DNA from: Candidatus Methanophagaceae archaeon GoMg2
GTDB taxonomy: Archaea; Halobacteriota; Syntropharchaeia; Alkanophagales; Methanospirareceae
Direction: 5' to 3'
Assembly (NCBI GenBank): GCA_013180585.1
Contig: QBUM01000249.1
Span: 1-44,365 of the forward strand
DNA length: 44,365 nt
A program made the position numbers and the translations under genes. Shown piece by piece: positions 32,474-36,014 of the stretch; positions within the stretch are counted from its first letter, which is position 1, and every line of letters starts with the position of its first letter. The notes under the pieces were generated by a model. It was not told the origin of the DNA. It worked only from the letters and a program-made list of their open reading frames with translations, and ran no database searches.

Positions 32474-32578
32474 CATAGTGCGTACGGTCAACCAAACACT
32501 CTGAGCGTATCAGAACTCTACCGCAATCGGATTTGGGTTATGATACAAGCTCGTAACCAGATACGCACTGTTATGCAA
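32474..32578 (-). other. Degenerate attC site of cassette 2
   Basis: Minus strand just after the stop codon: GCATAAC-agtgcgta ... tacgcact-atgg; arms intact, R' GTT lost. Confidence 0.55.
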
Positions 32579-32584
32579 CGCCCG

Positions 32585-33002
32585 CTACTTCAATATTTCT
32601 TCGATAATCTCTGCAGCATCCTGAACAAATTTTGGACACAGCGTCTCAAATAGTTTCTTCTCGTTTGCCTGACTCATTCCATCCAGGGTGCTTAGATCAC
32701 AACCGAGCAACTCTTTACACAGAATCTCGCTACAAACTCGTTAACGAGTCTATAAGTCTCTTCTTTTGCCACAGCATCGTCAACGCTTGTCATTCCGTGT
32801 TTTAATCCTATGAACATAAACGCATCGGTCACAGCACCACATGTTTCTCCTCTGCGACCTATTCCACCACCGAAAGCACCGGAAACCTTTAAGGCTGTTT
32901 CACGAGTTAACCCGAATTGTGTGTACCGTAAGTTGAGAGCATTGCTTGTGAACAGCTAAAACCTGTTTTAAAACAAGAAACCGCACGTTCAACTCTATTC
33001 AT
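32585..33002 (-). pseudogene. C_GCAxxG_C_C family putative redox protein (frameshifted), cassette 2
   Basis: MNRVERAVSCFKTGFSCSQA / ALKVSGAFGGGIGRRGETCGAVT / DAAEIIEEILK; frameshift in an acacaca run; ggagg RBS. Confidence 0.85.
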
Positions 33003-33033
33003 TTTTCGTGCCTCCAACATTTAAGCGGGTGGT

Positions 33034-33128
33034 GTATAACGGAACCAGCATATACGACGTGCTACCGAAGGGAGCAATGTCCCGAAGGCAAGGGCGTAAG
33101 CCCGTAGCGTATATGCTGTGTTATCTGC
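33034..33128 (-). other. Integron attC recombination site
   Basis: Minus strand gcagatAAC ... GTTatac cores with a perfect 11-bp IR cagcatatacg (33046-56) / cgtatatgctg (33108-18) and three internal mini-hairpins, lying between two co-oriented genes. Confidence 0.8.
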
Positions 33129-34644
33129 ACCTGAAGGGTCGGAGCGACCAAAGGGAGCGGAGAGTTTCGAATTCTGTCAAAAAAAATCTTAAGATGGCTC
33201 ATGCTAATCTTTCATTAATGATTTTAAATAATCTCTCAAAATTTTCTGTTGTTAGTGTTCCTAACTTATCATCTTTAAAAGAAGAATCTAATGTCATCTT
33301 GTTGATCTGGCGCGCCACCAAAACTTTATCAAATTTTCCAAACCCCTTATTTTTGAGGAATTCTGCATACTTTTTTGTGTGTTTGGTTATAGCAGTATCC
33401 AATTCATATAGAGTTATGTCTTTCCTTATTATTTTACTGTATGCTTCATTTACTGCCCTATTATAAAACTTCTCATCAATCAAATCTTCAATTTCAATAT
33501 CTCTTCCACGACCTCCCCTTTTCATTTTGTCCGATACACATTCATTTAACATGATTACTATGTCTTCTTTGATGTTATACCTCTCTTCTAATTCTTTTTT
33601 CACACGGATTCCTTGGGTGTCGTAATCAAGAACTGTGATAAAACTAAAATTTTCTTTTTCCAATAAAAGTGCAAAGTATGGAAACTTATCGGCACCACCG
33701 ACGGGAATGATTGCGGTTTTAGAAAAATCTAAACATTCTTTTTTGTTTCTCTCGAAATAATTTGATACTGCCTCTATTATCAGATAATCTGAAAACCCCT
33801 CTACAATCATATTTTTCTTATTTGTAAAAAGAGAATCCCCAATTGTTGCTCCAATGGCTGCTCTTATTGGTGCAAGTGCATCAAGCTCTGAATCATGAAA
33901 CTTTTCTTTGACAACAGTACCTTTATTTTTTTCTTTTTCAAGTATTTTAATTCTATCAAGGTTGTTTTTATCAATTAAAAATGGAGAATGTGTAGCATAT
34001 ATTATTTGATTATTTTCTTTAAGTTTTTCTAATGTACTCAATAGGTTTTTCTGCCCTTCTGCGTGTAAGTGAACTCCAGGATCATCTAACAATAAAACGG
34101 TATTTCTAAGCACACCTTTTGATCCCTGCATAAAGTTTATGTAGAAGGATAAGAACCATTGAAAGCCTTTACTTCTCTTACTTGGAGGTGTTGGTTCTGC
34201 ACTTGTTTCATCTTCTATCATAATAACAAAATCAGGCGTATTATATGTTATTTCGACTTCATATTCACCTTGTTTCCAAAACTCATTTATCTCACCAGTT
34301 ATCTTCTTTGATGCTTTTTTCGTATAGATGCGTTGCTGAGACGGTGGTTTTTTCTTTAATTCCTCTGCATTTAATCTCACCAACTTCAATAGGTTATCAA
34401 AAGTTTTATATTTTGATTTATTCTTCAAAAAGTCATTTATGTTAACGGTGTCCTCCTTTAAGATGTTTATATCATCAAAATAAATGAAACTTGGCATTAG
34501 TTTTAGTATCTTATGCACATTATCCCTCGGCATTTCTATTAATTCACCCTTAATCTCTTCAATGCGTTTTATAGTATTCTCAATATCATTCACAATTGGT
34601 TGATCCGTATCTGGCAACGCTTTTAGATTATCATAAAAAGTATT

Positions 34645-35069
34645 CATGTGTGTTCGGTTAAGTAATTATGGTCCACAAAACAAAAAGAAAAGGCATACAA
34701 AAAGTATTATATTTGTATAGCGAATTTTTAAAACCACGAGATTCCACAAGATTAACACAAGAAATAGGGATTAATGTGGGATAATGTGGCCCATGGTATA
34801 CTAAAATCTGGTTACGGTCCTTCTATTCTCGTGGAAATCTGTGAAATCTTGTGGTTAGCTGAATAATTACAAAGTATTTAATGGACACGGATTAACGCAG
34901 ATGGAAATCAAAAACTTCTAATTAATTTTGGGCGCTCTGCTCTGTGACGGTAAAACGTCGTATGAAAGACAAAAAAGATAAATCAGTGTAAATCTGTATC
35001 TGAAATGCGTTGTTATATTAGTTCATGGGTCATTATTTATCTTGTGTCGTACTTAACCGAACACCTATG
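34645..35069. mobile_element. MITE family A (IS4/ISH8-like CAT termini), 425 bp including a nested insert
   Basis: 20-bp TIR catgtgtgttcggttaagta / tacttaaccgaacacctatg; 10-bp TSD aaaaagtatt (34635-44, 35070-79). Confidence 0.92.
34709..34870. mobile_element. MITE family B copy nested in family A
   Basis: Perfect 8-bp TSD aaagtatt (34701-08, 34871-78); absent from the second family A copy. Confidence 0.88.
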
Positions 35070-35770
35070 AAAAAGTATTAAATACCTCGATTATCCCATC
35101 TTCTTGTAACCCAGTAAAGTCTATTGAAATGAACTCCTCTATATGCTGGTCATACTGTGCTTTACTACTGGCAAATGGTGCGTATCTTTGTATGTAGGCA
35201 TCTATCCGCTCAGATAAATTATCGATCTCTTTTTTTATCTCAGGTATTGATCCTATAGTTTGTTCTATCTTTAATTTCTCTATTTCTAATTCAGGACTTT
35301 CAACCGTGTATTGATTGTTAAAATACTTGGTGACTTTTAAATGCTTTATTTTACCAAGATCTTCATGGATCTCTTTTAATCTTTCTCTATCATTATCTAT
35401 GATCTCAAACCAAGTTGTAACCATTTCTATATTCGCTGCTTCTATCTCGCCAGAATCTAACTTTTCTTTGACATTAGAATAAGAACTGATATCCTCCCCG
35501 TCATATTCATACTCTGAATTGAAAGATTCCAACGCTTTTAGAAATGTTGTCTTGCCTCTTTCATTTCTACCTATTAAGCATACGATATCATCATCTATCT
35601 TTACTTCACCAGAGTCACTAATACATCTGAAATTTTGTATTCTAATTTTTTCTAGTTTCATACTTGTTCCCTTATTTTTTCACATCGAATTAACATTATG
35701 AGTTAATATTATCATAGACTATCTTTCTATTTAATTGGATTTATGAAGTTAATAAACAGGATTCGGAATT

Positions 35771-35850
35771 GCAGATAACGTTGTATATCCGAACTTACTT
35801 CGCATATCCTTCCAATTTGGCGATATATCCGAACATAGTTCGCATATACT
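35771..35850 (-). other. Putative attI site with two 24-bp direct repeats
   Basis: G/TTATCTGC core at 35779-71; tatatccgaacNtaNttcgcatat at 35784-807 and 35824-847, each an imperfect palindrome. Confidence 0.7.
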
Positions 35851-35875
35851 ACCCTCTGATCGAACTTCTCCATCT

Positions 35876-36014
35876 TTAATCATCTTCCTCCCATCTCATC
35901 TGTAAGTTATCCCACGGACTTTTTATCTTATCTATATCTCTATCACTTACCTGAGCATACATTTCTGTCGTCTTCAAACTTTTTGTGCCACCACAGTTCT
36001 TGAATATCCCGCAT
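35876..36014 (-). pseudogene. Integron-integrase-like tyrosine recombinase, C-terminal remnant
   Basis: MRDIQELWWHK/(frameshift)SLKTTEMYAQVSDRDIDKIKSPWDNL matches box II IQELLGH.S.KTT.IYTHV and the IntI-type SPLD tail. Confidence 0.75.

Follow-up and report, generated by a model that had tools for sequence, protein, structure and literature searches.

A probable decayed integron platform in an ANME-1 archaeon, member of a probable variant class shared across its order

Inspection of a 44,365-nucleotide (nt) contig of Candidatus Methanophagaceae archaeon GoMg2 (QBUM01000249.1, assembly GCA_013180585.1; the whole stretch is referred to as the window) revealed on its minus strand the tail of a tyrosine recombinase gene, a putative attachment site (attI) and two gene cassettes, each ended by a hairpin of the attC type. 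We consider it very probable (roughly 0.85) that this arrangement represents the decayed platform of a variant class of integron, which is widespread in the order Methanophagales, the anaerobic methanotrophic archaea of group 1 (ANME-1). By every sequence test available, the variant class appears to work like an integron; measured against integrons in the sense of IntegronFinder or of Messier and Roy, it fails in respect to two defining features, namely the additional domain of the integron integrase (IntI) and the canonical spacer and extrahelical bases of attC. The window and its relatives display the anatomy, the family-wide conservation, the covariation of the stem, the chimeric boundaries and the linkage of recombinase, attI and array. 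In the literature searched (mostly abstracts) we did not find a description of this class, nor a paper joining "Methanophagales" and "integron"; the supplementary lists of Ghaly et al. (2022; PMC9668308) may include the lineage.

The region had been read in an earlier note, made from the sequence letters, as a functional integron that has since decayed, and all of the parts named there were recovered at their places (Table 1; feature coordinates are given on the minus strand in whole-window numbering). That architecture stands, with an integrase remnant, attI and two cassettes with attC-type ends, all decayed; the assignment to the canonical type does not, the recombinase not being a canonical IntI and the attC not being canonical either. 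The recombinase tail begins directly behind the methyltransferase stop codon (36016-36018, TAA) and reads in two frames separated by one frameshift, ..IQELWWHK and then SLKTTEMYAQVSDRDIDKIKSPWDNLQ.., up to a stop at 35878-35876. Its catalytic tyrosine lies within MYAQVS, its C-terminal end reads ..KSPWD, and tblastn placed it at residues 309-337 of a full-length relative of 348 amino acids (aa). The remnant is too short to cover the additional-domain region or for scoring with the family model NF040815. The repeat-flanked GTT core consists of two 30-nt direct repeats (35784-35813 and 35824-35853; family D3, 87% identity), each of them near-palindromic and dif-like, with ~11-nt inverted arms and a 5-6-nt centre (~35850-35823 and ~35810-35783). 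The two palindromes are separated by CCAAATTGGAAG, and beyond the repeats the sequence continues ..ATATACAACG/TTATCTGC, G occupying 35779 and TT 35778-35777.

Table 1. Features of the probable integron platform and its borders in the window
Feature	Position	Strand	Description
Class I SAM (S-adenosylmethionine) methyltransferase gene	36732-36016	minus	Upstream chromosomal border, outside the integron
Recombinase tail	36011-35876	minus	5'-truncated, frameshifted, ~45 codons, IntI-like tyrosine recombinase
attI (putative)	35850-35777	minus	Two palindromic modules, then G-TT; same design in relatives
Cassette 1	35778-33040	minus	OLD-family nuclease gene and attC; starts with the TT next to attI, ends with the G of GTT in attC1
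MITE (miniature inverted-repeat transposable element) in the OLD gene	35069-34645	minus	425 bp; terminal inverted repeats begin CATAGGTGTTCGG
attC1	33130-33030	minus	R'' ..GATAAC (AAC 33122-33120), 11-bp L stem, variable loop, spacer GTTCC, R' GTT 33040-33038
Cassette 2 gene	33002-32585	minus	C_GCAxxG_C_C pseudogene, three frame pieces, two frameshifts
attC2, decayed	32580-32468	minus	R'' TTGCATAAC (32578-32570); keeps ..CATAAC and the stem
MITE-family fragment	32267-32427	plus	Between the array end and the DUF2117 gene

The OLD gene of cassette 1 is present in two pieces (35661-35065 and 34647-33199), which match AAA_15 (60 bits), AAA_21 (39 bits) and OLD-like_TOPRIM (31 bits) in Pfam as well as Old (63 bits), GajA and AriA in PADLOC, both the ATPase and the TOPRIM domain of an OLD nuclease being present. 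Within the gene of cassette 2, the middle piece gives 62 bits on PF09719 (C_GCAxxG_C_C, cut-off 27) and the last piece 15 bits (E 0.025), while the first piece is without a match. The hairpin attC1, ending GTTCC-GTTATAC, folds on its bottom (plus) strand (33128-33034) with -23.1 kcal/mol (z -3.75), none of 200 shuffles being as good; it scores 68.7 bits on the covariance model R1 described below, in whose training set it is included. The second hairpin, attC2, was not in that set and reaches 40 bits (E 3.5e-5). Its L stem is kept (32570-32561 paired with 32485-32476), and the position of GTT is occupied by CAA (32470-32468). As had been pointed out in the earlier note, G/TTATCTGC (35779-35771) and GCAGATAAC (33128-33120) are exactly complementary; counted from the attI GTT, the following 8 nt match the reverse complement of the attC1 R'' at 7/8 positions. 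This complementarity is more than chance, since the same relation was found at a second locus and statistically over 35 cassettes.

The second locus lies on another contig (C191) of the same genome. An MtrH-like gene is followed there by a 115-aa recombinase tail (83.8 bits on PF00589), two repeats, G/TTATATGAA, a gene of the NucS_C/PD-(D/E)XK type and a hairpin, which is 83% identical to attC1 and whose first bases, TTCATATAAC, are exactly complementary to the beginning of the cassette at this locus.

Extension of the analysis toward the whole genome and the order was initially based on pattern scans for AAC..GTT with paired arms, which returned 310 sites versus 162 in shuffled sequence, 583 versus 556 and, with at least 9 pairs, 20 versus 10. 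These scans were too noisy and were therefore replaced by the covariance model R1, built from an alignment of 10 sites of this genome, for which RNAalifold gave 11 stem pairs, compensatory changes being present in 7. R1 finds 10 further sites in the genome at E <= 0.004 (20 in total), attC2 among them. Matches are present in 63 of 68 genomes of the order (E <= 1e-4, ~760 sites) and in 67 of 79 genomes of the class (E <= 1e-6). Within 50 sites taken from other genomes, 92.3% of the cells are paired, and both partners vary in 12 of 16 pairs. Double-change cells amount to 115 versus 38 +/- 6 in shuffled data (0/500 shuffles reach 115), the 50-site alignment having been fitted to R1, so that the covariation counts lean toward the structure of the model; sliding the partner by 1-3 columns lets the pairing fall to 20-46%. 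The layout of the sites is uniform: on one arm, one nucleotide (A in 65 of 67 sites) stands between AAC and an unbroken 11-bp L stem, and the other arm carries a 5-nt spacer (consensus RRAAC) before GTT. In the arrays of relatives the hairpin sites are 85-115 nt long. In 64 of 67 sites the bottom strand gives the more stable fold, the mean difference being 2.3 kcal/mol; for 263 canonical sites, a difference of 2.12 kcal/mol between the strands was reported (Nivina et al., 2016). The family shares with attC the inverse core ..AAC, the core GTT.. and imperfect inverted arms that are conserved as structure. The hairpins are also linked to gene ends, a same-strand open reading frame (ORF) ending just upstream of 47/58 sites versus 23/58 in a mirror control. 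As a separate observation, the word GCCCAAATT is found inside the otherwise variable attC loops of many sites (e.g., L003 4066-4181 and 5202-5296, L005 1083-1178); CCAAATTGG also spaces the attI modules, and this may be a second protein-binding word.

Because recombination in integrons crosses over at G-TT, every attC is a chimera, in which the stretch behind GTT is part of the following cassette and pairs with the R'' of that cassette. For the corresponding boundary test, 75 R1 matches in the examined loci were reduced by 8 without AAC or GTT at the expected position, leaving 35 pairs of neighbours less than 4.5 kb apart. When the 8 nt behind GTT of one site were compared with the 8 nt preceding AAC of the following site, taken as reverse complement, on average 5.66/8 positions matched over the 35 pairs. 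The same comparison of each site with itself gave 3.69 and shuffled pairings 3.97 +/- 0.17, with 0/10,000 permutations reaching 5.66. Non-consensus bases co-vary across the cassette as well, GTT/GTCC, for instance, preceding a site with GGAC/AAC. At the beginning of the arrays, the first cassette start complements the R'' of the first attC at 6-7/8 positions in 7/7 loci compared by eye, and a class 1 integron read identically shows the same relation between a cassette start and its own attC. The right half of R' hence belongs to the next cassette, as in a chimeric attC. Such shifted complementarity is the signature expected of formerly circular cassettes. Judging from the complementarity of the cassette starts and from the left flanks (AAG versus ACG), the crossover would be placed at G-TT.

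These boundaries bear directly on a reading in which the sites are generic intergenic repeats (of the repetitive extragenic palindromic (REP), terminator or MITE type) beside unrelated Xer/dif or prophage debris, with no mobile cassette involved. The high abundance of the family (~760 matches in 68 genomes), the MITE-rich genome, the peaks of sediment-metagenome depth at attC1 and attI, and the dif-like layout of the attI modules with 11-nt arms and a 6-nt centre (Cortez et al., 2010) would agree with it. Nevertheless, we regard this reading as very unlikely. Shifted complementarity between neighbouring sites is unexpected for terminators or REPs, at many loci the order and strand of recombinase, attI and first attC are constant, and the sites are oriented to gene ends. 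An Rfam scan of 31500-37500 at the E-value threshold gave no match, Rfam being without an attC family. Several recombinase copies or remnants per genome are furthermore unlike a single housekeeping Xer.

The variant integron class becomes complete in relatives of the window, where a tyrosine recombinase (PF00589) adjoins the array as a full-length copy instead of a remnant. Arrays lie downstream of the recombinase on the same strand, with six attC at L047 (same genus), four at L045, and a HicB/HicA cassette with attC at L039. Within 170 nt downstream of the recombinase stop, we read the same attI design at 22 distinct loci: one to three palindromes of the form (G)TATATnCG...CGnATATAC, spaced by CCAAATTGG-like words, the last one ending ..ATATACCGAAG/TTA. 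The attI thus adjoins the integrase gene, and its insertion point would be G-TT. The L039 recombinase comprises 348 aa with PF13495 and PF00589 and an N-terminal part of ~65 residues without a Pfam match. Its best solved relative in a sequence search is IntI4 of Vibrio (PDB 2a3v; 169.5 bits versus 137 for XerA), with two matching stretches between which 25 residues stand opposite 67. Alignment with IntI1 gives 36% identity, all 45 gap columns falling into the additional-domain region; the deficit compared with IntI4 and IntI1 is 42-45 residues. An AlphaFold model (predicted local distance difference test (pLDDT) score 80) shows an extra N-terminal beta/alpha domain and, at the position of the I2 helix, a short hairpin and no helix; the top Foldseek match of this model is again 2a3v. 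The full-length relatives reach 222-254 bits on NF040815 ("site-specific tyrosine recombinase/integron integrase"), above its cut-off of 220. On TIGR02249 (integron integrase) they score 207-243 bits in two pieces, and nine ORFs of at least 300 aa from 6/68 genomes carry both halves of this model and skip positions 180-230.

On the basis of these score rankings, the recombinases would be placed between IntI and Xer. A housekeeping XerA would be expected as one intact copy with one dif; up to 11 matches per genome, mostly truncated, were counted instead. The earlier note had named, as something that would speak against it, a remnant closest to XerA/phage integrases never linked to attC arrays. 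This is not the case, because the recombinase family is systematically linked to arrays, without exception among the copies found. The same note had suggested a search of related genomes for an intact IntI with the integron-specific insertion: full-length copies do stand beside attI and arrays there, and the insertion is absent from all of them. A further, short tyrosine recombinase (~190-220 aa, little beyond the catalytic domain; e.g., L002, G000:C227:1462-2031 minus) was noticed in many genomes of the order, one copy in each, with no attI modules downstream. It may be the housekeeping Xer of the lineage, since 24/68 genomes show no other Xer/IntI-like match, including none of the TIGR02249 type, at E <= 1e-10.

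Several observations weigh against the assignment to an integron class. On the side of the recombinase, TIGR02249 has matches in 44/68 genomes of the order, none of them over the 265-bit cut-off, and the additional domain (I2 helix near patch III, intI_Cterm) is absent from the full-length copies linked to attI. Most recombinase copies in the order are truncated, many of them being C-terminal pieces, and only the nine ORFs mentioned above look full-length; no full-length copy was found in this genome, which is 79% complete. On the side of the hairpins, the canonical attC has a two-sided unpaired spacer of 5-6 nt and extrahelical bases (Nivina et al., 2016), while the spacer here is asymmetric (1 x 5) and no conserved single-base bulge occurs where canonical attC carries its extrahelical bases. 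The best R1 score within a canonical class 1 integron is 11.8 bits (E 0.12), and we suspect that the standard attC model in turn misses the sites described here. The fold of attC2 is weak (z -1.1 and -2.1), and it complements the start of cassette 2 at 5/8 positions only. At G-TT, neither a joint nor a circular cassette or array polymorphism was seen in four sediment runs, whose contigs end at attC and attI and thus are uninformative either way. Finally, most of the compared genomes are metagenome-assembled genomes (MAGs), and some contigs may be mis-binned.

The same features decide on the possibility of a canonical integron, in which the remnant would derive from a true IntI with additional domain and the sites would be ordinary attC, comparable to those described by Ghaly et al. 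(2022; PMC9668308). That study reports archaeal integrons in 75 MAGs of nine phyla and six IntIs with the additional domain, with attI immediately downstream of intI. This position of attI is shared here, and the C-terminal tail of C191, with its ..KSPLD-type end, matches TIGR02249 at positions 236-315. We nevertheless judge a canonical integron highly improbable: plasmid IntI1 as control reaches 508.6 bits on TIGR02249 versus none of the 68 genomes over the cut-off, the full-length copies adjacent to attI match in two pieces around the gap at 180-230, and the geometry of the sites is unlike real class 1 attC, where R'' and L'' are 5 nt and L' and R' 6 nt apart (plasmid record L082). The main text of Ghaly et al. 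(2022; PMC9668308), moreover, names neither ANME nor Halobacteriota.

In respect to known systems, the variant class shares with integrons, those of the "inverted integrase" layout and the archaeal ones of Ghaly et al. (2022) included, the tyrosine recombinase beside an attI with a probable G-TT crossover, mostly single-gene cassettes in one orientation, each ending in an AAC...GTT hairpin with a structurally conserved stem, the complementarity of R'' to the start of its own cassette, the more stable bottom strand, and a typical cargo of defence genes, toxin-antitoxin pairs and unknowns. The location of attI immediately downstream of the integrase corresponds to that reported for archaeal integrons. 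It differs in the lack of the ~35-40-residue additional domain and in the extra ~65-residue N-terminal domain of the recombinase, in the one-sided 1 x 5 spacer of attC, in the dif-like palindromes of attI, and in the 5' truncation of most integrase copies. XerA/dif and XerC/D (NF040815; PDB 5hxy and 4a8e) have in common with it the passing of the NF040815 cut-off, the missing additional domain and the 11-6-11 palindrome layout. Unlike them, several copies and many remnants per genome are linked to arrays, the probable crossover lies outside the palindrome, and IntI4 and IntI1 come out ahead of XerA in searches by sequence, BLAST and fold. Integron-related recombinases without a conserved insertion have been noted before: Smyshlyaev et al. 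(2021; PMC8138268) call the insertion "not fully conserved" in an integron-like subgroup of simple tyrosine recombinases, and Cury et al. (2016; PMC4889954) list four IntI/Xer-intermediate recombinases near attC sites as well as 50 recombinases without the IntI domain near attC, which were judged not to be IntI. In contrast to these, the recombinases described here have their own attI and stand at the head of arrays with as many as 6 sites.

Members of the class were also encountered outside the order. On one contig (L069) of a MAG labelled Thermodesulfobacteriota, the genes hemE, hemH, a protoporphyrinogen oxidase gene and murJ (427 bits) precede a unit of this class at 5911-7200. It consists of a full-length recombinase (58% identity), an attI of the design described above, here ending AACAAG/TTAGCTGC, and the first part of a Phd-like antitoxin cassette. 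Six R1 matches were found in this MAG, and the contig is clearly bacterial because of murJ. The complete plasmid NZ_CP041688.1 of the cultured Chryseobacterium sp. SNU WT5 (L081) encodes a 347-aa protein of the recombinase class (42% identity over 333 residues with 5 gaps, N-terminal domain included), with short same-strand genes downstream. R1 scores are weak on this plasmid (best 16.7 bits, E 0.038), and its sites were therefore read by eye; attC with 1 x 5 geometry and shifted complementarity follow two of the plasmid genes. A ~170-nt unit without ORF was observed twice in this array (7100-7290 and 9215-9390), once directly behind attI, bounded by TTGGGAAAAA.. and a perfect AAC-to-GTT hairpin. 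The same recombinase/attI/attC class was also seen on a contig (L074, 6001-7640) of a MAG labelled Desulfobacteria, a bin of the sulfate-reducer type like that of L069; this contig may be mis-binned because its attI is nearly identical to that of archaeal L039. In a Hadarchaeota MAG reached via L073 there was no R1 match, which is no evidence of absence.

Comparison of close relatives provides insight into the history of the window copy. The closest genome, G048, with a DUF2117 protein of 94% identity, matches the window over cassette 2, attC1 and the OLD 3' end with 95-97% nucleotide identity. The congener G046 (L076, C292) carries the methyltransferase gene, the same truncated remnant and attI at 83.6% identity to the window region 35783-36737. 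The truncation consequently predates the split of the species and is old. Homology to G046 stops at attI, no cassettes lie behind its attI, and its G-TT is replaced. In another congener, G050 (L077, C258), the stop of the methyltransferase gene is directly joined to the chromosomal DNA lying behind the attI region in G046, representing an empty site. The platform is thus conserved while the content behind attI is variable between the species. A 245-nt difference between the window (~33020) and G048 (L075, G048:C60 372-618) was considered as a cassette indel and rejected, as it lies within the leader of cassette 2, flanked by TTAAAT and not at G-TT. Across loci, the recombinases are truncated at various points (residues 99, 101, 156, 186, 247-258, 271-273, 301, 309, 311 and 316 of the relative). 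Given these varied break points, the resemblance of the RYIQEL codons to an attI arm is an unlikely cause of the truncation in the window and would be speculation. The variation also leads us to reject a split integrase of the Sulfolobus spindle-shaped virus (SSV) type, in which the remnant would be the int(C) half at the border of a provirus or plasmid: the remnant does read into variable DNA and abut a chromosomal gene, and the site that holds remnant and attI in G046 and in this genome is empty in G050, but there is no int(N) half at the far end, the window scan gave no tRNA or long direct repeat flanking the region, and the interior is an array of attC-bounded units, leaving this origin barely credible.

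The integron platform of the window can be regarded as a fossil, since its recombinase is truncated, its cassettes are broken and attC2 is without GTT. In the working form, as observed in relatives, an attI of one to three dif-like palindromes ending ..G-TT lies behind the recombinase gene on its strand, and the cassette array comes next. The recombinase would cut at or beside G-TT, insert circular cassettes at attI and excise cassettes between attC sites, probably using the folded bottom strand as substrate by analogy with classical integrons. In the window, only the last ~45 codons of the recombinase gene are left; the OLD cassette was subsequently broken by the MITE, cassette 2 is frameshifted, and the last attC is without its GTT. 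At most, such a platform could be used by a recombinase supplied in trans.

The MITE is flanked by a 10-bp target duplication, AATACTTTTT, at 35079-35070 and 34644-34635, and without it the OLD gene forms one frame of 675 codons. In contigs of 3/4 public marine-sediment runs, 34634 is joined straight to 35070 (a 435-nt skip); an uninterrupted cassette-1 gene consequently exists in nature. Common to OLD nucleases (class 1 OLD, GajA of Gabija, AriA of PARIS) and cassette 1 are the N-terminal ABC-type ATPase and the C-terminal TOPRIM domain. Cassette 1 differs from these in consisting of one gene, neither a GajB nor an AriB partner having been seen within it. The MITE family is abundant in this genome, with 97 matching pieces on 56/251 contigs, and further copies in the window are located at 36892-37154, 32267-32427 and 30776-30969.

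The surrounding contig also encodes two SecY with a Sec61-type plug, a PAN proteasomal ATPase, DUF2117 and an RFC-like ATPase. On account of the SecY with Sec61 plug, the PAN ATPase and DUF2117, it represents an archaeal chromosome and not a stray bacterial contig. The two secY genes (3009-4499 and 4492-5970, both minus) are adjacent and overlapping, each with the Sec61-type plug (PF00344, 128 and 233 bits), an essential translocon gene being duplicated here in tandem. Paralogous response-regulator genes lie side by side at 38207-38668 and 38815-39204, and just upstream of them (37462-38032) ORF fragments without a Pfam match resemble transposase debris.

The window itself is of modest consequence, being an inactive remnant with a MITE-broken defence gene, of which an intact version still circulates in marine sediments. 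The class to which it probably belongs combines every sequence hallmark of cassette capture with the lack of the I2 domain. Acquisition of the I2 helix is held to have enabled the recombination of folded single strands (Escudero et al., 2016, 2020). Surveys define integrons by the additional domain and dismiss recombinases without it (Cury et al., 2016), and screens based on this domain would not call the present recombinases integron integrases. Almost all genomes of this uncultured methane-oxidising lineage, which is of global importance, contain the class, and so does the plasmid of a cultured bacterium, where it is accessible to experiments. A broader interpretation, to which we give even odds, is a second lineage of integrons, with recombinases between Xer and IntI that never gained, or lost, the I2 domain and carry an extra N-terminal domain, with a one-sided-bulge attC and a dif-like attI, pervading ANME-1 (63/68 genomes) and also found in bacteria, the window being its fossil. 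Such a lineage would possibly represent an intermediate in integron evolution from Xer/dif and a route of gene exchange between methane-oxidising archaea and neighbouring bacteria. If the class is active, the origin of integrons from Xer would become directly testable, the known integron gene pool would be enlarged, and a mechanism would be at hand for the flux of accessory genes in ANME-1, e.g., of defence genes and toxin-antitoxin pairs.

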